Shown in pieces: positions 2,569-61,339 of a stretch of 64,000 nt of DNA (the stretch's first letter is position 1; every line of letters begins with the position of its first letter). The position numbers were made by a program, and so were the translations under genes. A model generated the notes under the pieces. It searched no databases. It was not told the origin of the DNA and was given only the letters and a program-made list of their open reading frames with translations. The DNA is from a virus. The stretch spans positions 20,977-84,976 of the IMG/VR virus record IMGVR_UViG_3300030107_006096; one strand, given 5' to 3'.

Positions 2569-3375
2569 ATGGCAACCCCAAACTCAGTAGATTCTCTAAT
2601 TGATTACTGTTTCAGACGATTGGGAGATCCAGTAGTCGATATAAATGTTGACAGGCAGCAAGCAGAAGAACGTGTTGAAGATGCTTTGGATTTCTTTGCT
2701 GAAAGACATTTTGATGGAGTTGAAAGACATTACTATAAGTATAAAGTAACTTCCGACGACATCACAAATGGTTATATAGACACTTCAGGATTGACTGCTG
2801 GCAGCGGTGCAGGCTATACGGCTGCACCAGCAGGTGATAAAATTTTATCCGTCGTGAGGGTATATCCATTTGGAAGTCAAACTAAAAACATGTTTAGTGT
2901 TCGATACCAAATGTCTCTTCAGGATTATTTTGGTGTCAATCGTGGATTGAATGCTAGTAGTTCTATGGGAATCGCTAGTTTTGATTCTGCAAAAAGATTT
3001 ATTAGTCTTGTAGAACAAATGTTTAATCCTGAAAAGCAGTTTAGATTTAGTAAAGTTACAAATAGACTATACATTGATATGGATTGGGATGAAGATATTG
3101 ATGCAGGCGATTTCATAGTATTTGAGGCTTATTCTTTATTGAACGCAACAACATTCACTGAAATTTACAATGACAGGTTATTAAAAGAATATGTTACCTC
3201 TTTAATAAAACGTCAGTGGGGAGCAAATCTTTCTAAGTTTGAAGGTGTTCAATTGCCGGGTGGAGTTACTGTAAGGGGCGGAGAACTATTTAGAGAAGCA
3301 CAGGAAGAGATTCAGAGAATAGAAGAGAGAGTTCTTTTAGAGTATGAATTACCCCCTGATTTCATGGTTGGATAA
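2569..3375 (+). CDS. gp13: Neck protein gp13
   Basis: LIDYCFRRLGDPVVDINVD, KRQWGANLSKFEGVQLPGG and YELPPDFMVG motifs; synteny with gp14-gp15. Confidence 0.93.
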   Translation: MATPNSVDSLIDYCFRRLGDPVVDINVDRQQAEERVEDALDFFAERHFDGVERHYYKYKVTSDDITNGYIDTSGLTAGSGAGYTAAPAGDKILSVVRVYPFGSQTKNMFSVRYQMSLQDYFGVNRGLNASSSMGIASFDSAKRFISLVEQMFNPEKQFRFSKVTNRLYIDMDWDEDIDAGDFIVFEAYSLLNATTFTEIYNDRLLKEYVTSLIKRQWGANLSKFEGVQLPGGVTVRGGELFREAQEEIQRIEERVLLEYELPPDFMVG

Positions 3376-3379
3376 TTAA

Positions 3380-4306
3380 ATGGCAAGAAATCCCTATTTC
3401 AAAGACTATAGTGGCGAACAAGACGTTGCGGAAGATCTGACCATTGAAACGATAAAGGCAATGGGAAGAGATATGGTTTATATACCCAGAACCATTCTCA
3501 CCAAAGACGATATTTTTGGCGAAGACATTCTTTCGAAATTTTCCGATGGATATGACATTGAAATGTACATTCAGTCTGTAGATGGTTTTGAAGGTGAAGG
3601 AGACATCATATCAAGATATGGATTGCAGGTCAAAGATAGGGTAGAACTTTTAGTTTCAAGAAGAAGATTTGAACAAGAGGTTACGACTGTCGCTGGAATT
3701 AATAGGCCGCGAGAGGGAGATTTAATTTATTTTCCCCTAAGCAAAAGTCTTTTTGAAATTCAATTTGTTGAACACGAAAATCCTTTTTATCAACTAGGAA
3801 AACTTTACGTTTATAAATTATCATGTGAACTGTTCCTCTATGATCAGAAACAAGAAATTGATACAGGAATCAGTGACATTGATAGTGTTGAGGACGAAAG
3901 AAAAGAATATGTTATCAAACTAACTCTTGGAGATAGGGTCAGTGGCACGTCTTATGTAAATTACTTAGAGGGAGAGGAAGTATTTCAGGTATTGGGAGTC
4001 AATGGAGCAACTGCTGCCGACGCCACTGCAACAGCAACAGTTATTGACTGGGACTCTACGGGCAAGATTCTTCAAATTTCAAACGTGTCAGGAACGATTG
4101 CTACTGGATCAACAGAGAGTATAAAGGGATCTTTGTCTGCAACAGAATACAAAGTTACATCGAAAGATACTACAAATATTATTGCTCCAACTGAACCAGA
4201 AAATAGTTCAATGATGGGAGATAATGAAGATCTCGAATATGGAATTGATTTTGATAACATCTTTGACTTTACAGAAACAGATCCATTCTCGGAAGGTGAT
4301 TATTAA
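3380..4306 (+). CDS. gp14: Neck protein gp14
   Basis: RPREGDLIYFP, FVEHENPFYQLGK, C-terminal FDFTETDPF; synteny. Confidence 0.93.
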   Translation: MARNPYFKDYSGEQDVAEDLTIETIKAMGRDMVYIPRTILTKDDIFGEDILSKFSDGYDIEMYIQSVDGFEGEGDIISRYGLQVKDRVELLVSRRRFEQEVTTVAGINRPREGDLIYFPLSKSLFEIQFVEHENPFYQLGKLYVYKLSCELFLYDQKQEIDTGISDIDSVEDERKEYVIKLTLGDRVSGTSYVNYLEGEEVFQVLGVNGATAADATATATVIDWDSTGKILQISNVSGTIATGSTESIKGSLSATEYKVTSKDTTNIIAPTEPENSSMMGDNEDLEYGIDFDNIFDFTETDPFSEGDY

Positions 4307-5190
4307 TGTTTAGATCTTTTTACAACGAATCTATTCGAAGATTAGTGGTCGCTTTTGGATCCCTTTTCAATGATATTACTTTGAAATCTACTAACTCATC
4401 TGGCAATGAGGAAATTATAAGAGTTCCTTTATCCTATGGACCAAAAGAAAAGTTTCTTCGAAGAATAGAGGAAGCAAGTTCAATATCAGGCACATCAAAG
4501 GTGCAAATGACATTACCTAGACTTGGGTTTGATATAACAGATATTTCATATGATCCTCAAAGAAAAAGAAATACTCTGCAACAAAGAAGAGAAATATTGC
4601 CTGGAGGCACTGGAGGCCAGGCCTCATATTCATATGCTGAAGTCCCTTATAATTTTAACTTTTCTCTTTACGGTTTTGTTAAAAATATGACAGACGCTCT
4701 TCAAATGACAGAGCAAATATTGCCCTATTTTACACCAGAATTCAATGTCACAATAAGATTCAATGACATCAATAAAAAAGTAGATGTTCCAATTATATTG
4801 AACAGCGTTTCAATTGAAGAAGACTATGAAGGAGATTTTGAATCTCGAAGAAGCATAATAACTCAATACGACTTCACGGCGAAATCATATGTATTTGGAG
4901 AGACACGAAAGAAAAATACCATTCTCTATACAGAAAATACTTTCTACAATCTTGTCGGAGATAATTATACAAGAAGTGGAGTAAGTGGTGCAATTTCAAG
5001 AGTGGATGTTGGAGTAAGTGGTGCTTCTGTTGATGGATCATATACTGGCTATACTATGAATAATTACACAACTTACACTAACATATATACAGTTGGACCC
5101 AGCGGATCAACAGTTGACGGTCAAAGATATATGGATACTTATGGAAATACATATTCGGGTGCGACGTATAATCCTCCGAATCCAACTTAG
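4306..5190 (+). CDS. gp15: Tail sheath stabilizer/terminator gp15 with a Gly/Ser/Thr/Tyr-rich C-terminal extension
   Basis: FYNESIRRLVVAFGSLFN, VPLSYGPKEKF, EQILPYFTP, EEDYEGDF. Confidence 0.92.
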   Translation: MFRSFYNESIRRLVVAFGSLFNDITLKSTNSSGNEEIIRVPLSYGPKEKFLRRIEEASSISGTSKVQMTLPRLGFDITDISYDPQRKRNTLQQRREILPGGTGGQASYSYAEVPYNFNFSLYGFVKNMTDALQMTEQILPYFTPEFNVTIRFNDINKKVDVPIILNSVSIEEDYEGDFESRRSIITQYDFTAKSYVFGETRKKNTILYTENTFYNLVGDNYTRSGVSGAISRVDVGVSGASVDGSYTGYTMNNYTTYTNIYTVGPSGSTVDGQRYMDTYGNTYSGATYNPPNPT

Positions 5191-5197
5191 GTGAATT

Positions 5198-7420: not shown

Positions 7421-9547
7421 ATGCCATTTAGTGTTAGCCCTAGTGTTACCGTAACAGAACTAGATCAAAGTTCAATCATCCCTCAAATCGCAACCACAAC
7501 TGGTGCATTCGTGGGAAGATTTGACAAAGGTCCCGTGGATAAAATCGTCGATATTTCAAGCGAGAAAGAACTTTTCGCAATTTTCGGAAAACCATCAGCA
7601 GGAGAAAGAGGAACAGACTGGTGGACATGCGCCAACTTCTTAAACTACAGCGATAAATTAAAGGTCGTTAGAGTTGATGAAGGTGGGGATCAATATAGCA
7701 CGGCATTGGGCGGCGGTGTTGGTTTGACTGCCGGTCGTCCTGCGGCACTTCAAGGAATAACCACTGGAGGAGTAACAACTCTTCCTAGAGTAGAATTTAA
7801 AGAACCGGGACAAATAGGAAATAGTTTAAGATTAGTTGTTTTCCCTGCCGGTGCAGGAGATCCTACTATTCTTTCTGGTACTGGTATTCGATCAGCAGCA
7901 GGAGGTATTGGAAATATTGGAAGTGTTGCAGATTGGAATACTGGCGGAACTGACACCTTTTCTGCCGGCGTCATGGTGAATCCTCTGGGTGGTTTCTATG
8001 CTCCCACTGATACTGATCTTTTCTCCTATAGACCGACAACAACGGGAGAAGTATATAAATCTCATAGAAATGGAATTTTAGCATCTGGAGTTAACAACAC
8101 CACGAACGGCGCAACTATGGATGAAGTTCATATTGCTCTTATTGATGAGAAGGGCTTGATTGCTTCGAATGAAGGAATTACTGGAACAGTCCTTGAAAAA
8201 TGGGAAGGTCTCTCTATGTGGAGAGGTGTTTACGACGGTGCAGGTAAAAACATCTACTATAAAGATGTAATCAATAATGAATCTAATTACATTACAATCG
8301 AAGAGGATATTGATAAGAGTTTGTTTGTAGCACAACATAAGCGTGGCAATGATCTGCCTTGGATAGGCGAAGATTCTACTTTTGGTCATGCAGTAACCGG
8401 CCACACGTTCTCAAATAACGATCCATTGTGGAGTCCCGGCACTACTTTCATGCCGATGCTTCAGTTCTCTGACATGTATACTAATGCGGGTGACAGTGTT
8501 AATCATAATGGCATATCCGCAGGTTATACTGCTTCACCATTAGCATATAATGTAGTATTCAGTGGTGGTCTAGATAGTGGAATCACTTGGCCATATGAAG
8601 GTGCAGGAACCGACAAGGGTAGTGGATTGTTCAATCCGCATCTGGCTGCGATTAAGAACGCATACAGAAAGCACTTTAGAGATTCAGAACAAGTTGATAT
8701 AGATTTGATTCTCGGTGGTGCCGCTGGAAAGATTCTTTCGGCAGATCTCATTGATATAGCAGAACATAGAAAAGATTGTGTCGCGTTTATCTCACCTCCA
8801 ATTTCACCAACTGAAACCGAATATAATTCTGTGGTTTACCAGTCAGAATTACATGGTTTCTCAGGACCTACAAATATCATTAATTATAGAAACGCAAATA
8901 ACTTAAATTCATCTTACGCAGTAATGGACACTGGATGGAAGTATATGTTTGATTCATATAACGGATTCTTCCGATGGGTTCCATTGAATGCAGATGTTGC
9001 TGGACTTTGTGCAAGAACTGAAAATACACAGGAAGCATGGTTCTCTCCTGCTGGATTTAATAGAGGAAGAGTTCAGGGTGTAGTCAAACTTGCAATCAAT
9101 CCAGATAAAGCTGAACGAGATAGACTGTATGCCGCAGGAATTAATCCTGTAGTTTCTTTCCCCGGAGAAGGAACAGTATTGTTTGGTGATAAGACTCTAC
9201 AAAGAAGACCAAGTGCATTGGATAGAATTAATGTACGAAGGTTGATGATTCACTTGGAGAAAGCAATCGCTACTGCTGCCAAGTTCCAACTCTTTGAGTT
9301 TAACGATGTCTTCACTCGAAGATCTTTCGTTAGCACGATCACTCCTTTCTTAAGAAGAGTTCAAGCGAAGAGAGGAATTACAGACTTTAGAGTTGTATGT
9401 GATGAAACAAACAATGATACTTCTGTTATCGAAAATAATCAATTCGTAGCAGACATATTCATCAAACCAGCAATGTCAATCAACTTTATAAATCTGAACT
9501 TCGTGGCTGTTCGACAAGATGCAACTTTCACAGAATCTACTACCTGA
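7421..9547 (+). CDS. gp18: Tail sheath protein gp18
   Basis: SPSVTVTELD, WFSPAGFNRG, LFGDKT, DRINVRRL, FRVVCDETNN. Confidence 0.97.
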   Translation: MPFSVSPSVTVTELDQSSIIPQIATTTGAFVGRFDKGPVDKIVDISSEKELFAIFGKPSAGERGTDWWTCANFLNYSDKLKVVRVDEGGDQYSTALGGGVGLTAGRPAALQGITTGGVTTLPRVEFKEPGQIGNSLRLVVFPAGAGDPTILSGTGIRSAAGGIGNIGSVADWNTGGTDTFSAGVMVNPLGGFYAPTDTDLFSYRPTTTGEVYKSHRNGILASGVNNTTNGATMDEVHIALIDEKGLIASNEGITGTVLEKWEGLSMWRGVYDGAGKNIYYKDVINNESNYITIEEDIDKSLFVAQHKRGNDLPWIGEDSTFGHAVTGHTFSNNDPLWSPGTTFMPMLQFSDMYTNAGDSVNHNGISAGYTASPLAYNVVFSGGLDSGITWPYEGAGTDKGSGLFNPHLAAIKNAYRKHFRDSEQVDIDLILGGAAGKILSADLIDIAEHRKDCVAFISPPISPTETEYNSVVYQSELHGFSGPTNIINYRNANNLNSSYAVMDTGWKYMFDSYNGFFRWVPLNADVAGLCARTENTQEAWFSPAGFNRGRVQGVVKLAINPDKAERDRLYAAGINPVVSFPGEGTVLFGDKTLQRRPSALDRINVRRLMIHLEKAIATAAKFQLFEFNDVFTRRSFVSTITPFLRRVQAKRGITDFRVVCDETNNDTSVIENNQFVADIFIKPAMSINFINLNFVAVRQDATFTESTT

Positions 9548-33054: not shown

Positions 33055-33074
33055 TTTACAGATGGAGACAAATT

Positions 33075-33753: not shown

Positions 33754-33796
33754 TTTTATAGCATATATATTAGGTGAACTAATTAAGGAAAATGCT

Positions 33797-34204: not shown

Positions 34205-34210
34205 GTAACT

Positions 34211-43313: not shown

Positions 43314-43314
43314 A

Positions 43315-49117: not shown

Positions 49118-49126
49118 GAGATTATT

Positions 49127-50092
49127 ATGATAGATGTAGTGATACCAGCACACAGAAAAGATATTGAAACTCTAGATCTTTGCATCGAAGGCATTAGAAA
49201 TAATGTAAAGAATGTAAGAAGAGTTATTGTTGTATCAAAAGAAAAAATGACAGACAATGCAGAATTTTATTCGGAGGAAGATTTCCCTTTCTCATTTAAA
49301 GATGTCGGCAACATCATTGGTTTTCACAGAAAAACATTTAATTATTATGGGGGATTGATTCAAACCACATCTGCTCTTGTGATACCAGATTTAGAAAGAG
49401 ATGTTCTAGTTTGTGATGCCGATACTGTATTTCTAAAGGAAACAGAATTCATAGATGAAAATGACATTGCACTTTATAACGTGAGTTATGATCTTCCCTC
49501 CCATGTAACATTACATCCTTATCTGGAACACATGGAAAAGTTAATACCAGGTCTCACTAAACAAACACAGTATTCTGGAATATGTCATCACATGCTAATA
49601 CAAAAAGACATATTGAAAGAAATGTTTGATCGGGTAGAAGACATTCATAAGATGCCTTTTTGGAAAGCAGACATAGGTGTTACACTACAAGATTATAAAA
49701 GTTTAAATCCAAAACCTGCTCACCCAGATGCTCCTCTTCTTTTCACAACATATGAATTATATTTTAATTATGTTATGAAGTATCATAAAGAAAGAGTTGC
49801 AATAAGACCTCAAAATAGTATACTTGCTTATAAAGGAAGAACGGGAGTTGATGGTTTTGAGGAACACAATATAGGATCAAGAACAAATTTAAAAGGCAAT
49901 GTTCAAATATTGTCAAGAGAAGAGGAAAGCAAATTTAAATTTGAATCCTTTGAAGAGTCTTGTAAACATATTTCGAAGAGATGTGAGGAACTAGGATATG
50001 ATGCAGTTACTTTTCAAAACCATACTAGAATTGGTTCACAAAAGCACAGGGAAGAATGCGAGAGGGAGATAAGTGAAATTCTTGCCAGTTAA
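49127..50092 (+). CDS. GT-A fold glycosyltransferase-like protein
   Basis: IDVVIPAHRKD, VCDADTVF, ICHHM, TYELYF. Confidence 0.62.
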   Translation: MIDVVIPAHRKDIETLDLCIEGIRNNVKNVRRVIVVSKEKMTDNAEFYSEEDFPFSFKDVGNIIGFHRKTFNYYGGLIQTTSALVIPDLERDVLVCDADTVFLKETEFIDENDIALYNVSYDLPSHVTLHPYLEHMEKLIPGLTKQTQYSGICHHMLIQKDILKEMFDRVEDIHKMPFWKADIGVTLQDYKSLNPKPAHPDAPLLFTTYELYFNYVMKYHKERVAIRPQNSILAYKGRTGVDGFEEHNIGSRTNLKGNVQILSREEESKFKFESFEESCKHISKRCEELGYDAVTFQNHTRIGSQKHREECEREISEILAS

Positions 50093-50486
50093 TAGTTTAA
50101 ATATTTTCCATCTCAAAAAGTTCATAGATGAAATGGGTTCTTCTGAAAAAACATTTAGGTATTATGATAAAAGAAATCCAGAGACAGCTATAAAAAATCA
50201 TTTACTTACAACAATTTTGTTTGATGATAATGCAGTGGGTTATGGACACCTAGATAAAGAAGACGATAAAATTTGGTTGGGAATATGCGTCAAAGAGGGA
50301 AAGCAAGGAAAAGGTTACGGGAAGGAAATAATGAAAAAGTTGGTTGAGTCTTGTTCAGAAGATATCTACTTATCTGTCGATAGTGATAATGAAAAGGCAA
50401 TCAAACTATACAAATTATTTTCTTTTGAGGAATTGAAAAGAAGTGAAAATATTTTATACATGAAACGAAATGCTTCCAGTTTATAA
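50073..50486 (+). CDS. GNAT acetyltransferase (candidate sugar N-acetyltransferase)
   Basis: QGKGYGK, LSVDSDNEKAIKLYKLFSF; overlaps the DegT gene. Confidence 0.85.
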   Translation: MKFLPVNSLNIFHLKKFIDEMGSSEKTFRYYDKRNPETAIKNHLLTTILFDDNAVGYGHLDKEDDKIWLGICVKEGKQGKGYGKEIMKKLVESCSEDIYLSVDSDNEKAIKLYKLFSFEELKRSENILYMKRNASSL

Positions 50487-51579
50487 TTTACACATTCCGA
50501 AATCCAGTATAGATTACGCGAATGATGCAATGTCATCTTCGTGGATATCCTCTATTGGAAAATACATTGAACTAGCAACAGATAAATTAAAAGAATTTAG
50601 TGGTTGCGAGTATGTCGTGTTAACAAACAACGGAACTTCTGCTACACACTTGGTTACTAGATCTTTGAAAAGGTTTAAACCTGAGACTAAGAGAATTCTT
50701 GTACCAAGTGCGTGTTATGTTGCAGCTTATAATTCATTGCTATACGACAACAATGATTGGGAAATAGTTTGTCTGGATCTAGACAAAGAAACATGGAACA
50801 TGAAAGTAGAAGAGGTGGGAGATTTTGATGCGATTTATGCCGTGCATAATTTAGGAAACATCATAAATGTCCCTGCTCTTCAAGAAAAATTTAATTGTCC
50901 AATTATAGAAGATAACTGTGAGGGTTTTTTTGGTGAGTACGAAAACAAACCATCAGGATCAAAATCCCTATGCTCTTCTCTTTCCTTCTTTGGAAATAAA
51001 AATATAACGTGTGGAGAAGGTGGAGCTTTCTTAACAAACGATAAGTCAATATATGATTTCGCAATTAAGTTGAGAGGACAGGGACAAACGGAAGAAAGAT
51101 ATATTCATGATGAACTTGGTTACAATTATAGAATGACAAATGTTCAAGCAGCGATTCTTTTAGGACAACTGGAGAATGCAGAACATATCCTTGATAACAA
51201 GGTAAGAGTTTTTGATAGGTATAAGAAAAACTTAAAAGATGTTCCCGGTATTTCTTTTCAGAAAGAGGAAAAGAATACTTCCCATTCTAATTGGATGTTT
51301 GGAGTTAAGTTTGATCATCTTAAATCATATAAGGATGCGAAAAAGTATTTTACTGATTGTGGTATAGATGTAAGACCCATGTTCTACTCGTACAGAAAAC
51401 ATAAACATATTATGGAATCTGGGTTGTTTGTGGGAGAAGATGCTGTTTCGAATGATATAAATAATACAGTTGTTATATTTCCTTCTTATCCTGATTTGAC
51501 AGATAAGGAAATTGATTATGTTTGTGAAAAGATTCTTATTTTTGTGAAAAGGTTAATGTATGCACATTTTAAATTATGA
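50470..51579 (+). CDS. DegT/DnrJ aminotransferase, GDP-perosamine synthase-like
   Basis: WISSIGKYI, NGTSA, IIEDNCE, SFFGNKNITCGEGGA, GYNYRMTNVQAA. Confidence 0.85.
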   Translation: MLPVYNLHIPKSSIDYANDAMSSSWISSIGKYIELATDKLKEFSGCEYVVLTNNGTSATHLVTRSLKRFKPETKRILVPSACYVAAYNSLLYDNNDWEIVCLDLDKETWNMKVEEVGDFDAIYAVHNLGNIINVPALQEKFNCPIIEDNCEGFFGEYENKPSGSKSLCSSLSFFGNKNITCGEGGAFLTNDKSIYDFAIKLRGQGQTEERYIHDELGYNYRMTNVQAAILLGQLENAEHILDNKVRVFDRYKKNLKDVPGISFQKEEKNTSHSNWMFGVKFDHLKSYKDAKKYFTDCGIDVRPMFYSYRKHKHIMESGLFVGEDAVSNDINNTVVIFPSYPDLTDKEIDYVCEKILIFVKRLMYAHFKL

Positions 51580-52270
51580 TACCAAAAAATATTATTTTGC
51601 TGAGTTGGTGGGAAGTCTCTACAACATAGACTTAGCAGATCTAGACAGTGAAGATGAGAAAACAAATCTAACATTAGGTAAAGATACTCATACTTCTCTC
51701 CATAAAATTTATTATAACAAGATAGATGCAGACGGTGGATGGCCAGAGTTTGATAATCTATACAAAGCATTTGTCAGAGAAGTTATCTTTCCATTGTTTG
51801 AAGATGACGAGTTGATCTATCAGAAGACTCCCGGCATTCGTTTCAATAGACCGGGAGCGAAAGCAGTTTATAGGTGGCACTCAGACGGTGATTCCCACCA
51901 TAAGCATCCTCTCGGCGAACTGAATGTATTTTTGCCACTCACTAAATCTTTTGATACCAATACTGTATGGATTGAAAGTTTGCCCGGACTTGGAGACTTC
52001 GCTCCAGTAAATCTTGAGTATGGTCAATTCCTTTTCGCTTACTTCAATCAGTGCCGTCATGGAAACCAAGATAATGAAACCGGCAAGACAAGAGTTAGTT
52101 TTGACTTTAGAGTTATGCCTGGTTTTGCGTATGATGATAAATGTGATAAAGTCACATGTACAACAAAACAACCCTTTACAGTAGGTGGGTATTATGATAA
52201 AATGAGTCGTGATGAAACACCAGATACATTTGATCCGATTGAAAATGCAAAGTTAGGTTCAGCATGTTAG
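51560..52270 (+). CDS. StrG-like Fe(II)/2OG oxygenase-fold protein
   Basis: YQKTPGIRF, WHSD, NVFLPLT, HGNQDNETGKTRVSFDFR. Confidence 0.72.
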   Translation: MHILNYDTKKYYFAELVGSLYNIDLADLDSEDEKTNLTLGKDTHTSLHKIYYNKIDADGGWPEFDNLYKAFVREVIFPLFEDDELIYQKTPGIRFNRPGAKAVYRWHSDGDSHHKHPLGELNVFLPLTKSFDTNTVWIESLPGLGDFAPVNLEYGQFLFAYFNQCRHGNQDNETGKTRVSFDFRVMPGFAYDDKCDKVTCTTKQPFTVGGYYDKMSRDETPDTFDPIENAKLGSAC

Positions 52271-52908
52271 TACAAAAGTATATGGACGAGTATAAACTTT
52301 CCGATCCGTGGGATGTGGTTGATTTGTTTGAAAAAGTTCTAGCAGAATATGCTGGAAGCAAGTATGCTGTCGCTGTAGATAATTGCACAGATGCGATGTT
52401 TCTTTGTCTGAAGTATCTTAAAGCAGAAGGCGAAATTATTTTGCCAAAAAGAACATATGTTTCTGTTCCTTGTACTGTCATTCATGCTGGGTGTCAAGTA
52501 AAGTTTGAGGACATTAAGTGGAGTGGAGCATATCAACTTAATCCATATCCAGTATGGGATGGAGCTACTAGAATGAAGCAGGGAATGTACGTTCCAGACT
52601 CTTACTATTGTTTGTCTTTTCATAGAAGAAAACACATTCCAATCGGCAAAGGTGGAATGATACTCACGAACAACAAAGATGCATATGAATGGTTTAAGGT
52701 AGCTCGGTATGAGGGAAGACATATGGACAAGTTGTATAAGGATGACTCCTTTGATATGATTGGATGGAACATGTATATGCCTCCGGAACAAGCAGCCGAG
52801 GGACTGGAGTTGTTTAAAAATATTTCAGATGATAATGATGATCTGGAAACTTCTGGTATGCATAAGGATTTGTCAGAGTTTCCAATATATGAAAAGGCAA
52901 ACCGATGA
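52264..52908 (+). CDS. Short DegT-like PLP-dependent aminotransferase (214 aa)
   Basis: FEKVLAEYAGSKYAVAVDNCT, SFHRRKHIPIGKGGMIL, GWNMYM. Confidence 0.75.
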   Translation: MLVQKYMDEYKLSDPWDVVDLFEKVLAEYAGSKYAVAVDNCTDAMFLCLKYLKAEGEIILPKRTYVSVPCTVIHAGCQVKFEDIKWSGAYQLNPYPVWDGATRMKQGMYVPDSYYCLSFHRRKHIPIGKGGMILTNNKDAYEWFKVARYEGRHMDKLYKDDSFDMIGWNMYMPPEQAAEGLELFKNISDDNDDLETSGMHKDLSEFPIYEKANR

Positions 52909-53723
52909 GTACAAAAATAATTGCAGAGATTGGAATAAATCATAATGGTGACATTAATATCGCAAAGAAATTAATTGATGTTGCTGCTGTTGCAGGATGC
53001 GACTTTGTAAAGTTTCAAAAGAGAAATCCTGATGTATGTGTACCAGAAGATCAGAAGTATAAGAGGAGAGATACTCCTTGGGGAAATCTCATGTATCTAG
53101 AGTACAAATATCGAATGGAGTTTGATCACTCTCAATACGATGAATTGTTTTCATATGCTGATTCAAAAGGAATAGGAATGTTTGCATCAGTTTGGGATAA
53201 TGATTCTGTTGACTTCATGAGAACTTACACAAGCACAATGAAGGTTCCTTCTGCTCTGATCACAAACAATGATCTTTTATTTTATGCAAGAGATCGATCA
53301 GATTATTTAATGATCTCAACAGGAATGAGCGAAGAAAAAGAAATAGAAAATGCAGTGAAGGTAGGAAACCCTGATCTCATATTCCATACTAACTCCTCAT
53401 ATCCATCCCCGGTTGATGATTTAAATTTGAATTATATAGAATGGTTATATGAAAAGTATCCAGATAAAGATATTGGTTACAGTGGACATGAATATGGCCT
53501 TGTCCCTACATATGCAGCAGTTGTCAAGGGTGCTACTTGGATTGAAAGACACATAACACTAGACAGAACAATGTGGGGATCTGATCAGATGGCATCTGTA
53601 GAGCCTCATGGACTAATAAAATTGGTAAAAGATATTCGTAGTATAGAAAAGTCACTAGGAGATAGTGGTCCTAGAAAGGTTTTGGAATCTGAATTAAGTA
53701 AAAGAGAATCATTGAGGGGTTAA
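52905..53723 (+). CDS. neuB: N-acetylneuraminate / nonulosonate synthase (no C-terminal SAF domain)
   Basis: IIAEIGINHNGD, VKFQKR, ISTGMS, SSYP, GYSGHE, IERHITLDR. Confidence 0.92.
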   Translation: MSTKIIAEIGINHNGDINIAKKLIDVAAVAGCDFVKFQKRNPDVCVPEDQKYKRRDTPWGNLMYLEYKYRMEFDHSQYDELFSYADSKGIGMFASVWDNDSVDFMRTYTSTMKVPSALITNNDLLFYARDRSDYLMISTGMSEEKEIENAVKVGNPDLIFHTNSSYPSPVDDLNLNYIEWLYEKYPDKDIGYSGHEYGLVPTYAAVVKGATWIERHITLDRTMWGSDQMASVEPHGLIKLVKDIRSIEKSLGDSGPRKVLESELSKRESLRG

Positions 53724-53724
53724 T

Positions 53725-54360
53725 ATGAAAACAGTAGCGTTGATATTAGCGAGAGGTGGCAGCAAAGGAATCCCAAATAAAAACATTCAGTTGTTGGGTG
53801 GGGAGCCTCTAATAGCATACTCAATAAATGCAGCAAAATATTCTGATGTGGATGAAGTTTGGGTTAGCACAGATTCTGCAAACATAAAAACTTTGGCAAA
53901 AAAGTTTGGGGCGAAAGTCATAGACAGACCTTCTGAATATTCAAAGGACGAATCGCCAAACGAAGATGCTCTATTACATTTTGCAGAGAATGTAGAGTTT
54001 GATATTCTTGTTTCGATGCAGCCTACTTCCCCTTTGATTTCTCCTAAGTATATAAATGAAAGTGTAGAGAAAATAAAGGAAGGATTCAATTCTTCGTTTA
54101 CTGCATACAAGGAACACTGGTATCCAAGATGGACAAAGAACATTGAACCAATCGGTTTTAAGAATGAAAGCAGACCGAGAAGACAAGATAGAAATGATGT
54201 TTATGTGGAGAATGGTGCAGTCTATACCACCACAAGAAAAGATTTGATAAAATCTAAAACTAGAGTAAGTGGAAAGATTGCGGTAGTAGAAATGCCTTTT
54301 GCGGATAGTATTCAAATTGACACCTATGAAGATATGAAATTAGTGGAGAAAATTCTATGA
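53725..54360 (+). CDS. neuA: CMP-nonulosonate (CMP-sialic acid) synthetase
   Basis: LARGGSKGIPNKN, VSTD, QPTSPL, RRQD, ENGAVY, IDTYED. Confidence 0.92.
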   Translation: MKTVALILARGGSKGIPNKNIQLLGGEPLIAYSINAAKYSDVDEVWVSTDSANIKTLAKKFGAKVIDRPSEYSKDESPNEDALLHFAENVEFDILVSMQPTSPLISPKYINESVEKIKEGFNSSFTAYKEHWYPRWTKNIEPIGFKNESRPRRQDRNDVYVENGAVYTTTRKDLIKSKTRVSGKIAVVEMPFADSIQIDTYEDMKLVEKIL

Positions 54361-54689
54361 TTTACTGTTTTGATTTGGATGGAACTCTTTGTAAATTGTC
54401 AGACAGCTATGAGACGGATGAGTATGATAAATCATATCCTATTCCAGAAAGAATAGAAAAAGTAAATTCTCTCTACAAACGTGGTCATAAGATTATCATA
54501 GAGACTGCAAGAGGGTCGGTTTCCGGAAAAGACTGGCACCAAGTTACTAAAGATCAATTAAAAAATTGGGGAGTAAAGTATCATGTACTCCGAACAGGAA
54601 CCAAACATGCAGCCGATCATTATGTTGATGACAAAGCTATAAATGCTTCTGACTTTTTTACAAAACGTGGAGACACACTTAAATTATGA
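54357..54689 (+). CDS. Small capless HAD phosphatase
   Basis: FDLDGTL, TARG, K..ADHYVDDKA. Confidence 0.82.
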   Translation: MIYCFDLDGTLCKLSDSYETDEYDKSYPIPERIEKVNSLYKRGHKIIIETARGSVSGKDWHQVTKDQLKNWGVKYHVLRTGTKHAADHYVDDKAINASDFFTKRGDTLKL

Positions 54690-55672
54690 TATTAATTTGC
54701 TACGGAACAAGACCAGAGTATATCAAAGTAAAACCCCTTATTGAAAAAATGAGGGGAGTTGTTCCGTTTCAAATTCTACATGTTGCTCAACATCAAGATT
54801 TAGTGGATGGAGAATATGATCATTTCATTGAAATAAAAGATGGTGAAAATAGATTAGATTCTATCATTTCATCTGTAATGAATTCTTTTGATTTTAAGGA
54901 ACATGGAATCTCTCATGTAATTGTTCAGGGGGACACTGCTACTGCGTATGCGATTGCTCTAACTGCGTTCAATCATAAAGTTCCTGTTATACATTTAGAG
55001 GCAGGAATGAGAACCTATGATCTAGAAAATCCATATCCAGAAGAAGTATATCGACAATGCATTTCAAGAATTGCATGTATTCATTTTGCTCCTACCTCCA
55101 ACGAGGCCTGTCTCCTGAAACAAGAAAAGGTGCATGGCGACATTCATGTTGTAGGAAATACGGTTCTGGATAATTTGTTGGGGGTTCCTTGTGAGTATGG
55201 GAATGTGGTTCTTCTGACAATGCATCGAAGAGAAAATCACCATGTAATTCCAGAATATTTTAAGACTTTCTCAAAATTAGCAAAAGATAATCCGGATTTG
55301 CAATTTGTTTTACCATTGCATCCAAATCCGAATGTTCAAAAACATAAAGACTTGTTGGAGGGAGTTTTGGTTATAGATCCTTTGCCATATGATTCGATGA
55401 TAAGTTCAATCGCAAAATGCAGAATGATTATTTCGGATAGTGGTGGGATTCAAGAAGAGGCAGCATTCCTTAAGAAAAAGATTATTGTTTGCAGACAAAC
55501 GACAGAAAGAGTTGCTTCCCTTGAATCATCCTCATTTATATGCAGATCACCAGAAGATCTAGAAAAAATATTCTATCGGTTAAAAGATGACTACATAGTA
55601 GAGAAGGATTGTCCATATGGTGACGGTCGATCCAGTGAAAAGATTTTGGAGATTTTGAAATGCGTTGTTTAG
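54686..55672 (+). CDS. wecB: UDP-GlcNAc 2-epimerase, non-hydrolysing type
   Basis: GTRPEYIK, QGDT, HLEAGMRT..PYPEE, TMHRREN, DSGGIQEEA, PYGDG. Confidence 0.88.
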   Translation: MILICYGTRPEYIKVKPLIEKMRGVVPFQILHVAQHQDLVDGEYDHFIEIKDGENRLDSIISSVMNSFDFKEHGISHVIVQGDTATAYAIALTAFNHKVPVIHLEAGMRTYDLENPYPEEVYRQCISRIACIHFAPTSNEACLLKQEKVHGDIHVVGNTVLDNLLGVPCEYGNVVLLTMHRRENHHVIPEYFKTFSKLAKDNPDLQFVLPLHPNPNVQKHKDLLEGVLVIDPLPYDSMISSIAKCRMIISDSGGIQEEAAFLKKKIIVCRQTTERVASLESSSFICRSPEDLEKIFYRLKDDYIVEKDCPYGDGRSSEKILEILKCVV

Positions 55673-56577
55673 TTACAGGTGGAGCAGGTTTCATAGGATC
55701 TAACCTTGTTGATCGTCTTATACAAGATGGCAATGAGGTTGTTGTCATTGATAATGAATCATCAGGTTCCTATGAAAAATTTCATTGGAACGAGTCTGCT
55801 GAAAATTACAAGTATGACATAGCGGACTATGATAAAATATATCCACTGTTTAAAAATGTTGATGTTGTCTTTCACTTAGCTGCACAAGCTAGGATACAGG
55901 TTTGTATAGAAAACCCTGTTACGGCAGTTAAATCTAATATTTTAGGAACTTCTTGCGTTCTGCAATGTGCAAAAGAGAATGGAATCAAAAGAGTAATTTA
56001 TTCTTCGACATCTTCTGCGTATGGTTTGAAGAATGATCCTCCATTAGTAGAGTCTATGCAAACTGATTGTTTAAATCCTTATTCTGTTTCTAAAGTAGCT
56101 GGTGAGGATCTGTGCAAAATGTATAATGATCTTTATGGATTGGAAACTATAATTTTTAGATACTTCAATATTTATGGCAACCGGCAACCAACAAAAGGAC
56201 AATACTCCCCCGTTATTGGTTTATTTCAAAATCAATTAGAATTGGGAAAACCAATGACAGTTGTTGGTGATGGTTTACAAACAAGAGACTATACAAATGT
56301 TTCAGATGTAGTTGAAGCAAATATTTTAGCTTCTCAAACTCAAGAGAAGGAAGCGTTTGGTCAAATCTTTAATATAGGATTTGGAAAAAACTATAGTGTA
56401 ATGGAATTAGTAGAAATGTTAGGCGGAAAAGATGCAAATTATGTTAACATACCTAACAGACTTGGAGAGTCCAGACATACTTTATCTGACTGTTCAAAAG
56501 CAGAAAGAATATTAAATTGGAAAGCAAAAATTGACTTAAAAGAATGGATTAAAATATGCAAGAAACAATTAGTGTAG
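55660..56577 (+). CDS. NAD-dependent sugar epimerase/dehydratase (SDR)
   Basis: VTGGAGFIGS, SSTSSAYG, YSVSK, RYFNIYG, GDGLQTRD. Confidence 0.9.
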   Translation: MRCLVTGGAGFIGSNLVDRLIQDGNEVVVIDNESSGSYEKFHWNESAENYKYDIADYDKIYPLFKNVDVVFHLAAQARIQVCIENPVTAVKSNILGTSCVLQCAKENGIKRVIYSSTSSAYGLKNDPPLVESMQTDCLNPYSVSKVAGEDLCKMYNDLYGLETIIFRYFNIYGNRQPTKGQYSPVIGLFQNQLELGKPMTVVGDGLQTRDYTNVSDVVEANILASQTQEKEAFGQIFNIGFGKNYSVMELVEMLGGKDANYVNIPNRLGESRHTLSDCSKAERILNWKAKIDLKEWIKICKKQLV

Positions 56578-57917
56578 ATGAATCTAAGATTGTTAAGAAG
56601 GCTCCCAAACCTGAAGGAATAAGTGTAACACTCTGTATGATAGTGAAGGATGAATCTCACATCATCAAAGAATGTTTAGAGTCTATGCTTCCATTCATTG
56701 ATAGGTATGATATCACCGATACTGGATCAACTGATGGGACTCCTGAATTGATTAAAGAATATATGGATGAACGAGGAATTCCCGGTGAGGTATATATTTC
56801 TGACTGGAAAGGTTTCGGTAAAAGCAGAACAGAAGCACTAGGAAGATGTGACGACAAAGCAGATTATATCTGGATGATCGATGCTGACGATAGGGTCACT
56901 GGAAATTTTAAATATCCTCCGGTTATGGATGCAGATGCATACAGTCTTCGACTAGGAAGGCCAGATTTTTCTTGGTTTAGAAATCAAATATTTAAAACAG
57001 GCGTTCAGTGGGAGTATGTTGGAATTCTTCACGAATATGCAGAATGCAAATCCAAAACACCTGAAACCACTAGAGTTGTCAAGTGGGATCAAGGAGACTA
57101 CTTTGTTGAAGCAAGAACTCTTGGTGCTAGAAATGTGGGAATTGATCCTAAAGATAAGTATGCAAAAGATGCAGAACAACTTCTAGATGCACTTACTAAT
57201 GAAGAATCTGATACTTACGAACCCAATAATGTTCGTTATCAATTCTATCTTGCTCAATCTTATTTTGATTCACATCAATGGGATGAAGCAGTGGAAGCAT
57301 ATAAGAAGAGAATAGAAATGGGAGGATGGGAAGAAGAAATTTGGTTCTCTTATTTCAGAATTGCGATCATCTATGCGATTCAGGAGAAGACATGGGGAGA
57401 AGTAAAACAAGCATATCTAGATGCTTTCGAATATAGACCTCATAGAGCAGAACCTCTATATGAAATCGCAAGAGTATGCAGGACTATGGGAAAGCCTCGT
57501 CAGGCTTACATTTATGCTAAAATGGGAGTAGAAATACAATATCCCGAGCAAGATATTCTATTCATTGCAAAGGATGTATATGATTGGAAAATGTTAGATG
57601 AATTTGGTTCTGTTGCCTTTTATATTGGAGATTTCCAGAATGGTGGGGGAGCATGTCAAAAACTGATGGCAGAAAATAGATTCCCCGATTCAGAGAGGGA
57701 GAGGATCTCTAATAATTTAAGATCATATGAAGCTCAGATTCAAGCTCTATACCAACAGAGAATGCAGTTTGAAGAGAATCAAAAAAGAATGATTGAGGAA
57801 AATAAGCAAAAAGAAAGAGAAGAAAAGAAGCAGCAGAAAGCTGTAAAAGCCATGCAACCTAAAAAATCCACAAAAACCCAAAGTCCAAAGAAGGGAAAAA
57901 AGAAAAGGAATAAATAG
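56556..57917 (+). CDS. GT2 glycosyltransferase with TPR repeats
   Basis: LCMIVKDE, DTGSTDGT, IDADD, GILHE, FYLAQSY followed by TPR-like helices; basic tail. Confidence 0.87.
   Translation: MQETISVDESKIVKKAPKPEGISVTLCMIVKDESHIIKECLESMLPFIDRYDITDTGSTDGTPELIKEYMDERGIPGEVYISDWKGFGKSRTEALGRCDDKADYIWMIDADDRVTGNFKYPPVMDADAYSLRLGRPDFSWFRNQIFKTGVQWEYVGILHEYAECKSKTPETTRVVKWDQGDYFVEARTLGARNVGIDPKDKYAKDAEQLLDALTNEESDTYEPNNVRYQFYLAQSYFDSHQWDEAVEAYKKRIEMGGWEEEIWFSYFRIAIIYAIQEKTWGEVKQAYLDAFEYRPHRAEPLYEIARVCRTMGKPRQAYIYAKMGVEIQYPEQDILFIAKDVYDWKMLDEFGSVAFYIGDFQNGGGACQKLMAENRFPDSERERISNNLRSYEAQIQALYQQRMQFEENQKRMIEENKQKEREEKKQQKAVKAMQPKKSTKTQSPKKGKKKRNK
57909..57916 (+). promoter_or_regulatory. Late promoter variant AATAAATA for the fibre module
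   Basis: ATAAATA core followed by GT, as at the gp19, gp23 and gp3 sites; about 19 nt before ATG 57935. Confidence 0.5.
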
Positions 57918-57934: not shown

Positions 57935-58381
57935 ATGGCAGTTAATTACAATTTAGAAGCACAGCAAGGCGCAAACTTCACATTTCATGTTAAATATCTG
58001 GATGAAAATAATAGTCCGGTTGATTTGGCAGGAATGACTGCTTCCATGCAGGTACGAAGATATGCTACTTCAAGTACAAAATTAATAGAATGGGCATCTC
58101 ACAATGTCGGTTCCATACTATACCCTTTGGGAGTTACCACGGACGGAACAGGGGGAAGTGGTGGAATAAAATTAAATGCAACTTACACTGGCGGAACAGC
58201 TAGTATTCTTATCAACGGTATGACGGGATCAACTGGAGGAATCTATGTTACTGCTGATCCCGAAACAATGAGTCATGTTCCTGTTGGTAAACATTATTAT
58301 GACCTTGAATTGATAAATGGAAATACAATTTTAAGAATAGTTGAAGGAAGATTCGAAGTCAAAGGAAATGTATCGAGATGA
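57935..58381 (+). CDS. Virion structural protein (baseplate/fibre-associated, BppU-like)
   Basis: QGANF, DLAGMTASMQVR, YYDLEL..RIVEGRFEV pattern of phage structural adaptor proteins. Confidence 0.6.
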   Translation: MAVNYNLEAQQGANFTFHVKYLDENNSPVDLAGMTASMQVRRYATSSTKLIEWASHNVGSILYPLGVTTDGTGGSGGIKLNATYTGGTASILINGMTGSTGGIYVTADPETMSHVPVGKHYYDLELINGNTILRIVEGRFEVKGNVSR

Positions 58382-58512: not shown

Positions 58513-59838
58513 ATGTTAGAAAGTTTTTCAAATTATTCTCCTAAAAATGAATATTCTGTTCGCACGGGAAATTCAAATGTAATTACAGGTTCAAATAAAA
58601 TTGGATCTGAATTTGCTATAGTACAAGACGTTGGAGAGATAAAAGAAAATACTACCTTAACTCTCGTCGAAAAAGAAAATGCAGTAGATCCTTTTTTCTT
58701 TCAAGTAGGAAAAGGATTAGCAGAGGCATATTTCAAAGACTCCAAACAAAAATATTATTGTTTTACAGGCTCCACTTCTCAAATTGAAGAATTGTTTGAC
58801 TCAATTGAACCCAAGTTCGAAGAACATATCATTGAAGATGAAGAGATAATAAATGAGATTATGATTCAAGGACCTGTTGGAGAAAAGGGAGATATTGGTG
58901 AACAAGGCCCCCAAGGTGAAATAGGACCACAGGGAGTAAAGGGAGATACCGGCTTAAGAGGAATTCAAGGTGAACAAGGCCCTCAGGGAGAGCAGGGGGA
59001 TCAAGGTGAACAAGGCGAAGTTGGAGAACAAGGCCCTCAAGGCGAACGAGGTGAAGTTGGAGAACAAGGCCCTCAGGGAGAACAGGGTGTCCAAGGTGAG
59101 CAAGGAATTCAAGGAATACAAGGTGAACAAGGCGCTAAAGGTGAGCAAGGAATTCAAGGAGTTCCCGGCATTAAAGGTGATCGGGGCGAACAGGGAATTC
59201 AAGGCGAACAAGGTCTTCAAGGTGAGCAAGGAATACAAGGTGAACGTGGCGAAGTTGGAGAAAAAGGCCCTAAAGGTGAACAGGGCATCCGGGGAGTTCG
59301 GGGAGAAAAGGGCGATAGAGGTGCAGAGGGAAAACGAGGACTTAAAGGCGAAAAAGGCGACAAAGGCGATCCAGGCGAAAAGGGAGATCCCGGAGAACCT
59401 GTGCAAATTAAAACTGGAAAAGGACTAAAGTACAACAAAAAGAAAAATGAACTTTGGTTAGATCCAAACACATTCCCTCCAGTTCCATTAGGACAAGTTG
59501 GGGGTGCAGTGATCGGCGGCGGTGGTAGTAACACTGGTGTCCAATCTGATGAAACAGTAATCAGAAGCACAGTAAGGCATATAAATTTTGCCTCAGACTT
59601 TACGGTGGAGAAGACTGGAAAAGAAGACGTTAAAGTTACAGTGAATCCAGCAACTCAAGAAAACCGACATGCACAAGCTAACTACGGCTCATTGTCAGCC
59701 GGTGCTGCTAAGTCACAAGAGTCAAACAATCCCTCAATTGTATTAACTGCTGGTGGCAATAATGAAATATTCCAAAACTTGGATATGAAAGATAATGAAA
59801 TAAAAAATGTAAAATTAGACGGTGGAACTTTCACCTAA
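58513..59838 (+). CDS. Collagen-like fibre protein
   Basis: 59 uninterrupted Gly-X-Y triplets (58870-59400); ends in LDGGTF. Confidence 0.88.
58870..59400 (+). repeat. Collagen-coding 9-nt-periodic repeat
   Basis: Includes an exact 23-bp direct repeat GAAGTTGGAGAACAAGGCCCTCA at 59017-59039 and 59053-59075. Confidence 0.85.
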
Positions 59839-59857
59839 ATAATACGAGGTAATAATT

Positions 59858-61339
59858 ATGGTAACACATATTCAATTTCATAGATCTTGCGTAGCGGGAG
59901 CAACTCCCGACGTTTCTACAATGTACGAGGGTGAGCCTGCTGTCAATCTTACTGATGGCATCTTATGGGTAAAAGGCTGTACTAGCGAATTGGTTCTTTT
60001 TCCTACAGGAGTTTCTTCTGTAAACGGTTCGACGGGCGATGTTACTATAACTGATTTAGTGGGTGTTGAAACATTCAACGGAGCGACTGGTGACGTACAG
60101 GGAGTAGGATCATTCAATGGATTAACCGGAACTGTTGACACATCTACTTTATTGATTCATGCTGATGGAATTTCTGCTGATGGTGCAACATTTGGTGATA
60201 ATATCAATTTGGGTGGTAATATTGTTCACTCAGGAGATACCGATACTCTTTTACAGTTTGATACGAATCAGGTAACTTTAAAGGCAGGAAATGCTACACT
60301 GTTAGAAGGCAATGCAAATGGTGTTCTCCATGTACCAACAGGTGTCTCTGGTGGTGGAGCGACATTCAGCGAAAATGTAGTGATTGAAAATGTCGGAGAT
60401 ATTGCACTCACAGTTAAAGGAGATACCGATAACTCTGGTGAAAACGACAACCCACTCATTCGTTTAGAACAAGACGGAGGAGCAGTCAGTTGTAATATTG
60501 GAATCAATGGTGACTCGAACAATCAATTTGTAGGCGCACAACCAAATGCGTTCTACATTGAAGCGGAATCATCTTCCGGTGCGGTTAACCAATTAATTCA
60601 ATTTGCAACAAACAACGCAGATGTAATGACACTCAATGGTGATGGTAATGTTGGAATCAACACAAGTGTACCAAGAGAAAGATTAGAAGTTCAAGGCACA
60701 ATTCAAGCAACAGGAGTTTCTGCTGAAGGATTGACTTGTAGTGGCAATATCATCATAGGTGAAGATGCATTCATTGGAACTGCTGCTGACGATGAAAGAA
60801 TTAAATTTGATGGTTCAAGTAACATACTTTCGTTTAGAACTCCAAATGTCCAAATTGAGAGAAAACTAGCACACTATGGAGATGGAGATACATACCTTGA
60901 CTTTACTTCGGACAGATTAAAGGTTGAAGTGGGTGATAGTTTAGTAATGGATATGAGTGCTGGCGGAATCACAATGGGAGATTTCGAGCTTACTCGACCT
61001 AAGCTGAAGGATTATTCTGAAACTGCATTAGCAACTAGCACTAAAAGTGCTTCGTTCAATGTTGATTTTGAAGACGGTAATGTCCAATCCTTCACTTTCA
61101 GTGATGACCTTACAGTGAGTTTCACCAACCCACCTGCAAGTGGTTCAGCAGGAACAGTTACACTTATTATTACAAATGGTGGCGCAAACACAACAACTTG
61201 GCATTCAAATGTATATTGGCCGGGAAATAATGCCCCTTCACTTACATCGAGTGGTGTAGATATTATTTCGTTTGTGACAATCGATGCAGGAACTAAAATT
61301 TACGGATTCGTTGGTGGACTTAACTTCCTAAATTCATAG
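59858..61339 (+). CDS. Tail-fibre / adhesin-like structural protein
   Basis: N-terminal IQFHRS..GEPAVNLTDGILW, VSSVNGSTGDV-type repeats, GNVGINTSVPRERLEVQG, C-terminal WPGNNAPSLT domain. Confidence 0.75.
   Translation: MVTHIQFHRSCVAGATPDVSTMYEGEPAVNLTDGILWVKGCTSELVLFPTGVSSVNGSTGDVTITDLVGVETFNGATGDVQGVGSFNGLTGTVDTSTLLIHADGISADGATFGDNINLGGNIVHSGDTDTLLQFDTNQVTLKAGNATLLEGNANGVLHVPTGVSGGGATFSENVVIENVGDIALTVKGDTDNSGENDNPLIRLEQDGGAVSCNIGINGDSNNQFVGAQPNAFYIEAESSSGAVNQLIQFATNNADVMTLNGDGNVGINTSVPRERLEVQGTIQATGVSAEGLTCSGNIIIGEDAFIGTAADDERIKFDGSSNILSFRTPNVQIERKLAHYGDGDTYLDFTSDRLKVEVGDSLVMDMSAGGITMGDFELTRPKLKDYSETALATSTKSASFNVDFEDGNVQSFTFSDDLTVSFTNPPASGSAGTVTLIITNGGANTTTWHSNVYWPGNNAPSLTSSGVDIISFVTIDAGTKIYGFVGGLNFLNS

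Follow-up and report, generated by a model that had tools for sequence, protein, structure and literature searches.

The window described here, a 64 kb stretch (64,000 nucleotides) of the 84,976-base viral contig IMGVR_UViG_3300030107_006096, comes from an uncultured marine T4-like myovirus. Its virion proteins carry a four-residue motif, G-[AVLIMFYW]-[TS]-[GA], more often than their composition predicts, and close to its fibre genes lies the gene for a protein in which a GT-A glycosyltransferase domain is followed by a TPR part (GT2-TPR). Taking these observations together, we give about an even chance to the proposal that the motif is the preferred acceptor context of GT2-TPR, acting as a soluble cytoplasmic protein O-glycosyltransferase; the surest substrates would then be p148, a small Ig-like virion protein of 148 amino acids (aa), and the fibres. 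The motif statistics, the restriction of the motif to virion proteins and to one lineage, the family resemblance of the enzyme and the conserved gene order were all computed here.

A first-pass annotation, made from the letters of the window alone, had listed 21 occurrences of the motif and read them as a candidate O-glycosylation sequon. All 21 were recovered at the same positions by a motif scan of the window open reading frames (ORFs), in 14 virion proteins with 5,115 aa in total. No match was found in gp16, gp17, gp20, gp21 or gp22, as the annotation had said, nor in gp19. Its further statement that replication and glycan enzymes are almost free of the motif also held, as the 61 other ORFs (15,999 aa) contain two matches, GLSG in ORF 34894 and GYSG in NeuB (52905), versus 3.56 expected, and 1724 of 2000 shuffles gave at least two. 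When the virion proteins were compared with composition-shuffled versions, a check that the annotation had proposed, whole-protein shuffles gave a mean of 5.98 matches and none of 5000 reached 21; with shuffling confined to blocks of 15-60 residues, 6.0-6.7 were expected and 0-1 of 5000 reached the observed number. The four residue classes can be arranged in 24 orderings, which have one common composition expectation. Within the virion set of the whole contig the order under study ranked first (32 matches versus 20 for the next), and with collagen tracts masked it remained first among the contig virion proteins (30 versus a median of 12.5).

Given the other positions, each position of the motif contributes to the excess (Gly at position 1, 2.7x; Thr and Ser at position 3, 3.7x and 1.5x; Ala and Gly at position 4, 3.5x and 2.1x), with Thr preferred over Ser at position 3 (232 versus 100). 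The flanks of the matches are uncharged, with Glu at 0.1-0.5x from -5 to -1, and Asn is preferred at -1 and Ala at +4; no longer consensus emerges. Asp is under-represented before the motif (0.6x at -1 relative to Gly). A cause at the DNA level was considered and rejected: the codons beneath the 34 matches of the contig are varied and of ordinary usage, with no common DNA word, and the pattern is therefore one of protein sequence.

Further analysis of relatives, scored with the motif fixed beforehand, showed that the preference recurs where the enzyme is present. Relatives were found by searching IMG/VR with gp18, gp23 and GT2-TPR, and G001, G005, G006, G010, G011, G012 and G014 were read as whole contigs, G011 with a completeness rating of 100%; runs of at least four G-x-y triplets were masked as collagen. 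Seven of the seven enzyme-positive genomes for which the 24 orderings were ranked placed the motif first or second. It was first among the virion and fibre proteins of G010, G011, G012 and G014 (58, 53, 80 and 76 matches versus medians of 21-26.5) and first in G006, and it was second in G005 (56 matches), where an overlapping word came first. A protein of G010-G014 was taken as structural if it was a core homologue, or if it was 350 aa or longer and had no homologue among the non-structural proteins of the window; this set may contain some non-virion proteins. When four-position motifs built from 27 residue classes were enumerated without bias in 130 virion and fibre proteins from G010, G011, G012 and G014, the exact motif of the first-pass annotation came first of the 33,208 that were scored (302 observed versus 69.2 expected), followed by G-x-T-[GA] and G-hydrophobic-T-[GA]. 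Collagen repeats were rejected as the only source, since the preference persists after masking of G-x-y runs. Non-structural proteins showed no order preference (ranks 22, 12 and 11 of 24), and the non-structural homologues in G010-G014 hold fewer than 8 matches in 31,466 aa.

By comparison, the motif ranked 2774th of 32,003 (59 versus 41.8 expected) in 55 structural proteins (35,344 aa) of the enzyme-negative isolates Melnitz, S-CREM1, Bellamy, S-CAM22 and RB55. Fibre and baseplate proteins of four enzyme-negative isolates gave ranks of 3 (S-CREM1), 24 (Melnitz), 10 and 19 of the 24 orderings. An outgroup of 308 homologues of gp13, gp14, gp15, gp18, gp23 and gp3, counted on short IMG/VR contigs whose enzyme status is not known, ranked the motif sixth of 24 (193 versus a median of 185.5), by which a general habit of T4-like structural proteins was rejected as its source. 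The close relatives L001, L002, L021, L088-L090, L092 and L141 were excluded from this outgroup, as were homologues covering less than 60-70% of the query in the alignment. In the baseplate and fibre proteins of Melnitz (L296) no other ordering is as rare as the motif (10 versus a median of 19 and about 21 expected by composition), a deficit that suggests avoidance more than neutrality in this enzyme-negative phage.

The GT-A domain of GT2-TPR scores above the Pfam cut-off, and its TPR part was recognised by TPR_14 (24.8 bits versus a cut-off of 23.5), other TPR families remaining under their cut-offs; consensus TPR proteins match residues 221-327 with E-values of 3e-6 and weaker. Two stretches, D109-A110-D111-D112 and D55-T-G-S-T-D60, are invariant in five GT2-TPR homologues (40-66% identity), the former being a DxD-type motif of the kind that binds metal and nucleotide sugar. 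The best relative in the PDB is GmaR (E 6.6e-9), a flagellin glycosyltransferase, and the next are SunS/ThuS (7msp, 7msk), which are marginal (E 0.0076-0.019). The NCBIfam SunS family matches at 3.5e-5, far under its cut-off, and no NCBIfam model reaches its cut-off for this protein. Relatives of GT2-TPR occur on at least 432 stretches in IMG/VR, and no homologue was found in T4-like isolates among 50,697 phage records.

Gene order ties the enzyme to a virion protein. In the best 80 of the at least 432 GT2-TPR loci, a p148 homologue lies immediately downstream of the enzyme gene in 57 and anywhere in the locus in 64. A GalE-like homologue is found upstream in 60 of the 80 (immediately upstream in 26), and collagen-like proteins are encoded downstream in 35, of which 19 are rich in G-x-T/S. 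After removal of exact duplicates and of proteins outside 120-165 aa, the 64 p148 sequences were reduced to 55 including that of the window; these carry a mean of 2.4 motif copies versus 0.31 expected, and 53 of them have at least one. The copies concentrate in a variable-length, Gly/Thr-rich central loop and at two flanking positions. An AF2 model of p148 is an Ig-like beta sandwich (mean pLDDT 83.2) in which the first motif opens a confident beta strand and the second lies in a lower-confidence loop, and the best Foldseek matches are small tail-tip or baseplate chains of T5 and DT57C. Like the enzyme, p148 had no homologue in T4-like isolates among the same phage records. These features make p148 a candidate dedicated substrate of GT2-TPR.

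The sequence ATAAATA lies 25 nt upstream of p148, and similar boxes precede gp18, gp19, gp22, gp23, gp3 and the 493-aa fibre; we call them late-promoter-like by comparison with the T4 late-promoter consensus. TATAAATA is no commoner than chance in the window (6 versus 5.84), and its placement before late genes, the sole notable feature, is suggestive. In G005 and G006 the fibres that follow p148 are BclA-like, with GPT, GNT, GVT and GAT repeats, and a long (G-x-T)n collagen region of the BclA type is thus present in these two genomes and in the 19 loci mentioned above.

Several observations weigh against the proposal that the motif is an acceptor site, and the first of them concern its choice. 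The motif was picked after looking, and when class motifs were scored in the window virion proteins it came 479th of 89,660, or 50th of 12,493 after collagen masking; poly-Gly/Ala and G-x-C-C words outrank it. A hold-out set of eight large proteins encoded upstream of the window, presumed to be baseplate or fibre proteins, gave 11 matches versus 4.96 expected; eight of the 11 fall in a single protein of 784 aa, and the other seven proteins are not enriched (3 versus 3.9 expected). The earlier attribution of the motif to exterior proteins was thus too broad. In the Gly/Ala/Thr-rich protein encoded at 61349, composition predicts 1.88 matches and none was found. Some of the matches in the window are internal copies, namely the pair in gp15 and three in similar repeat units among the five of fibre 59858. 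The post-hoc choice, the rank in the window and the dominance of one hold-out protein are what could be expected if the excess were an artefact of chance or composition in Gly/Ala/Thr-rich proteins. We consider such an artefact very improbable, taking into consideration the local shuffles described above and the finding that the motif, once fixed, ranked first in independent genomes both by orderings and by unbiased enumeration, which contradicts it.

A second group of opposing points concerns ancestry. The enzyme-positive genomes all come from a single group of relatives (gp23 about 50-79% identical), and the clade yielded no enzyme-negative genome to serve as a control; phylogenetic confounding therefore remains, as shared ancestry could yield the association. 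Pooled over the six core proteins (gp13, gp14, gp15, gp18, gp23 and gp3), six enzyme-negative isolates also rank the motif first of 24 (24 versus a median of 12), and the gp23 and gp18 homologues of enzyme-negative cyanophages and Melnitz individually reach 2.3-4.2x the composition expectation. Summed counts for these six proteins give about 4.8x in the window and six enzyme-positive relatives versus about 2.6x in the isolates. The link to the enzyme is therefore strong where p148 and the fibres are concerned, and modest in the capsid, sheath and neck proteins. Co-occurrence across genomes, which the annotation had proposed to test for glycosyltransferase islands, was found for GT2-TPR, subject to the relatedness of the positive genomes: the motif recurs in enzyme-positive relatives and is weak or absent in enzyme-negative phages, with a weaker preference persisting in the core proteins of the isolates. 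Two of the gp23 sites are partly conserved among 67 clade homologues, which retain Thr/Ser at them in only 45 and 42 cases.

These points would fit a different explanation, possible though clearly less likely, in which the order is a structural habit of this lineage. Gly-rich loops and beta-rich fibre repeats would favour it, for example where a turn is followed by the start of a strand, and duplication and ancestry would have spread it; the enzyme would have a narrower role, acting on G-x-T fibres only, on p148 only or on something else, and most sites would never be modified. The repeats within gp15 and fibre 59858, the homology of the two gp23 sites and of the first p148 site, the beta strand that begins at the latter in the model, the weaker preference of the isolates and the relatedness of all enzyme-positive genomes are consistent with such a habit. 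It accounts less well for an excess that extends across unrelated folds (capsid, sheath, neck, Ig-like protein and fibres), as the same folds show none in the outgroup homologues, and the fibres of Melnitz and S-CREM1 likewise. In addition, compared with outgroup homologues, nine of the 14 matches in the core proteins are substitutions at variable yet occupied columns, often from A, L or N to Thr/Ser, and the preference for Thr over Ser resembles the natural sites of SgtA, a Clostridioides difficile enzyme discussed below. The annotation had described many of the sites as lying in insertions or terminal extensions, and this applies to five of these 14 matches and not to the nine substitutions. 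It had also supposed that unrelated proteins converged on the motif; the two gp23 sites, inherited at homologous positions in the clade, are not independent gains.

The remaining points against an acceptor role of the motif concern the enzyme and its surroundings. The match to GmaR spans residues 23-115 only, which is the nucleotide-binding half of the glycosyltransferase domain, and no late-promoter-like box lies within 100 nt upstream of GT2-TPR. The collagen-like fibre of the window, 58513, is without Thr repeats: its 177 collagen-like residues are mostly GEQ (the top triplet), GIQ, GEK and GPQ, and Thr never occupies the third triplet position, and the collagen fibre of G001 is likewise of the GEQ type without Thr. 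Fibre 58513 thus lacks the (G-x-T)n region of the BclA type. Finally, the resemblance to SgtA is one of architecture and gene order as described.

Large glycan islands of marine phages are usually regarded as acting on sugars of the host envelope. An island of this kind precedes GT2-TPR, and the motif could be read by something other than a glycosyltransferase (an assembly chaperone, another modifier of Thr/Ser or a host receptor) while the island and GT2-TPR remodel host surface glycans or other targets. The lack of a late-promoter-like box of its own in GT2-TPR and the absence of a Pfam match for 12 of the 35 island ORFs are in keeping with that usual view. Nevertheless we regard this explanation as improbable, because proteins or peptides are the substrates of its nearest relatives of solved structure, the enzyme gene is tightly linked to that of a virion protein, and the window has neither flippase, polymerase nor ligase by Pfam and no hydrophobic membrane-type segment in any ORF. 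From the latter it follows that a membrane-embedded enzyme such as lipid-linked systems use is not among the products of the window; soluble direct transfer is the better fit, although the steps of a lipid-linked pathway could be provided by the host.

If GT2-TPR does read the motif, late in infection its GT-A domain would move a first sugar from a nucleotide sugar to Thr, less often to Ser, while the TPR part would hold the protein substrate. The donor may be a UDP-hexose or UDP-HexNAc supplied by the adjacent GalE-like enzyme. The surest substrates would be p148, encoded immediately downstream, and the fibres, including in relatives the BclA-like G-x-T collagen fibres, and loops of the sheath, capsid and neck proteins, with their scattered sites, may be additional ones. 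The glycan may then be lengthened by further products of the island, namely its other transferases, its methyltransferases and the pathways for GDP-fucose and nonulosonic acid. That any sugar is attached, which one it is and at which sites is what we infer from these sequences, and the particles are probably sugar-coated. For the annotation's claim of an acceptor motif for phage glycosyltransferases, enrichment beyond composition, specificity for virion proteins and a plausible writer near motif-rich genes were thus found, and the modification itself remains a prediction. A broader form of the proposal is doubtful but worth stating: a widespread group of uncultured marine T4-like phages would build a complex glycan in the cytoplasm and attach it, through initiation similar to that of SgtA or GmaR, to a sequon spread by substitution and insertion, so that a general phage-owned system would coat the whole virion. 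The 27-kb island points to fucose, a nonulosonic acid and methyl groups as constituents, and capsid, sheath, neck, an Ig-like collar protein and fibres would be the carriers.

The coordinates of the features are given in the table below. The gene names of the first-pass annotation agree with PHROGs and Pfam, and the closest isolates are distant, with a gp23 at most 53% identical (Methylophilales phage Melnitz).

Table. Virion protein genes, motif matches and glycan genes of the window (positions in the window; a single number is the start of the ORF)
Feature	Position	Strand	Assignment and remarks
gp13, neck protein	2569..3375	+	phrog_211 1.6e-35; GLTA 2788-2799, GYTA 2812-2823; 2 matches vs 0.14 expected
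gp14, neck protein	3380..4306	+	phrog_460 1.1e-77; GATA 4004-4015
gp15, tail sheath stabiliser	4306..5190	+	phrog_227 1.5e-67 over residues 2-220 of 294; GVSG 4978-4989 and 5011-5022, both in the C-terminal variable part
gp16	5198		T4-like gene
gp17	5679		T4-like gene
gp18, tail sheath	7421..9547	+	phrog_23 2.7e-117; GLTA 7721-7732, GITG 8174-8185, GISA 8510-8521, GYTA 8522-8533, GFSG 8855-8866; 5 matches vs 0.80 expected
gp19	9583		T4-like gene
gp20	10122		T4-like gene
gp21	12725		T4-like gene
gp22	13416		T4-like gene
gp23, major capsid protein	14611..16104	+	phrog_138 3.8e-134; 497 residues; GATA 15076-15087, GFTG 15112-15123, GATA 15433-15444 (residues 156, 168, 275)
gp3, tail completion protein	16190..16753	+	phrog_45; GYTA 16196-16207 at the N-terminus, residue 3
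UvsY, UvsW, gp55, further replication/recombination genes, to gp45	after gp3, to gp45 (28742)		
Glycan-building island	29434..56577 (to 57917 including GT2-TPR)	+	Pfam, NCBIfam; GDP-fucose synthesis (fcl-like, gmd), two GT11-like, GT17-like, two GT2 including GT2-TPR, several methyltransferases, nucleotidyltransferase, HAD, GNAT, DegT aminotransferases, NeuB, cytidylyltransferase, wecB-type epimerase, GalE-like epimerase
Interruption of the island	31322-34204		gp44, gp62, regA, Cpn10-like gene
GalE-like NAD-dependent sugar epimerase/dehydratase	55660..56577	+	best NCBIfam galE 9.7e-53, under the curated cut-off
GT2-TPR, candidate protein O-glycosyltransferase	56556..57917	+	N-terminal GT-A (PF00535 1.2e-11, above cut-off), then TPR
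p148, small Ig-like virion protein	57935..58381	+	148 aa; GMTA 58031-58042, GMTG 58217-58228
Collagen-like fibre protein, GEQ/GIQ type	58513..59838	+	tail-fibre PHROGs; no motif match
493-aa fibre protein	59858..61339	+	tail-fibre PHROGs; matches start at GATG 60080, GLTG 60119, GISA 60167, GVSG 60341, GVSA 60713; 5 vs 0.86 expected; CTAAATA 23 nt upstream
Gly-rich tail-fibre-assembly-like protein	61349..62068	+	phrog_863; 239 aa, 29% Gly, long poly-Gly runs

Comparison of the core proteins with their outgroup homologues showed how the individual matches arose. The Thr column of the gp14 match is L or I in outgroups, the columns of the first gp15 match are absent from most of them, the gp18 matches at residues 364 and 368 lie within an insertion missing from 67 of 70, and the N-terminal extension of gp3 is missing in 62 of 70. 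All gp23 matches lie in indel-rich loops; the two conserved sites are 156 and 168, and site 275 is specific to the window. The gp18 of the window aligns to T4 gp18 over residues 5-109 and 417-707 only, and most gp18 and gp23 matches fall in segments unalignable to the T4 sequences, about which the alignment shows nothing more. An AF2 model of gp23 built from 67 sequences (mean pLDDT 53.6) was too poor for mapping sites, and low confidence at the motif sites therefore says nothing.

Other observations were made along the way. The start M-P-(L)-G-Y-T-A is common to gp3 (window 16190-16207) and to the unrelated 784-aa virion protein (contig C1 12580-12600), and the gp3 of G001 begins M-G-Y-T-A. 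Words of the G-A-C-C and G-x-C-C types are hugely enriched in giant virion proteins, both upstream on the contig (G000:C1 2-19646) and in G010-G014 (G-A-C-C in G010-G014, 39 versus 0.2 expected; G-x-C-C in this contig, 25 versus 1.8); the proteins concerned are cysteine-rich repeat proteins of the fibre/baseplate region. DNA matching the tail sheath gene of the window is labelled 'major capsid protein' in the Synechococcus phage records OQ504982-OQ504984, which is probably a mis-annotation. The relative G002 (L001, L086) is strongly mosaic: its homologues of window ORFs 20080-25420 (recombination) have 93-99% protein identity, and its gp18 is only 63% and its gp23 about 71-79% identical to those of the window. 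Within the island, a nonulosonic-acid cassette (52905-55672) comprises NeuB, a PseF-like cytidylyltransferase and a small HAD phosphatase, and by the NCBIfam cut-off its epimerase is of the non-hydrolysing WecB type (226.9 versus 210.15 bits), not of the NeuC type. A 214-aa ORF (52264-52908), near a full-length DegT gene (50470-51579), resembles only the first ~85 residues of LegC/PseC-type aminotransferases and may be a truncated or diverged paralogue.

A literature search found no published report of virion glycosylation for T4-like or marine phages, nor of a GT2-TPR of phage origin that uses a G-x-T acceptor. Should the proposed function of the motif be correct, it would give a cytoplasmic glycosylation system of phages a sequon that can be read from sequence, and what the large glycan islands of marine phages are for would be explained at least in part. 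In an abundant group of ocean viruses, a glycan layer would be added to the factors in host recognition, particle stability and evasion of grazing or antibodies. The enzyme family is common, given its IMG/VR loci, and the proposal is directly testable with three genes, those for the GalE-like enzyme, GT2-TPR and p148.

Among known systems, the O-glycosylation sequon of Bacteroidota, D-(S/T)-(A/I/L/V/M/T), is used in the periplasm by a lipid-linked pathway and requires Asp before Ser/Thr. Both motifs are short Ser/Thr contexts common to many unrelated surface proteins, and the annotation had drawn this analogy. It does not hold: the motif has by definition a hydrophobic residue before Thr, with Gly at -2, Asp is depleted at -1 and the window encodes no membrane protein. 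SunS and ThuS, the weak relatives of the GT-A domain, are GT2 enzymes that glycosylate a peptide directly; unlike the proposed system they modify Cys of a single bacteriocin precursor, and the similarity is marginal. Mycobacteriophage virion glycosylation was reportedly described by Freeman et al. in 2023. According to passages citing such work (PMC12619734), mycobacteriophages use their own glycosyltransferases to decorate capsid and tail proteins, with glycans at the C-termini of capsid and tail-tube proteins. As far as found, and on the strength of those passages, this is the only traceable tailed-phage precedent. Here too phage-encoded enzymes would decorate their own virion, whereas gp19 has no match, the three gp23 sites lie in internal loops, not at the C-terminus as in those accounts, and the phage family, host type and enzyme architecture differ. 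A further paper (PMC8402811), as far as its available text goes, deals with host glycans on the cystovirus envelope and has no bearing on the question.

SgtA and GmaR are the better analogues. C. difficile SgtA (PMC7157674) combines a GT-A domain and TPR, is encoded directly upstream of bclA3 and places O-GlcNAc on Thr of G-P-T collagen repeats, with Ser tolerated. GT2-TPR shares with this description the domain order, the predicted soluble use of a nucleotide sugar, a gene immediately upstream of that for a G-x-T-rich surface protein and a putative Thr acceptor, and its phage relatives carry GPT, GNT, GVT and GAT collagen fibres beside the enzyme. Unlike in the spore system, the gene directly downstream in this phage encodes a small Ig-like protein and not a collagen, the window fibre is of the GEQ type, and the motif also occurs singly in non-collagen proteins, with a hydrophobic residue in place of Pro. 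GmaR of Listeria monocytogenes is described as a flagellin O-GlcNAc transferase in which the glycosyltransferase domain precedes TPR (PMC9638930). GmaR (PDB 22ao) differs from GT2-TPR in an additional anti-repressor domain, in its length of 637 aa and in the short span of the match; it is nevertheless the best solved sequence relative, has the same domain order and acts in the cytoplasm on a self-assembling filament protein.

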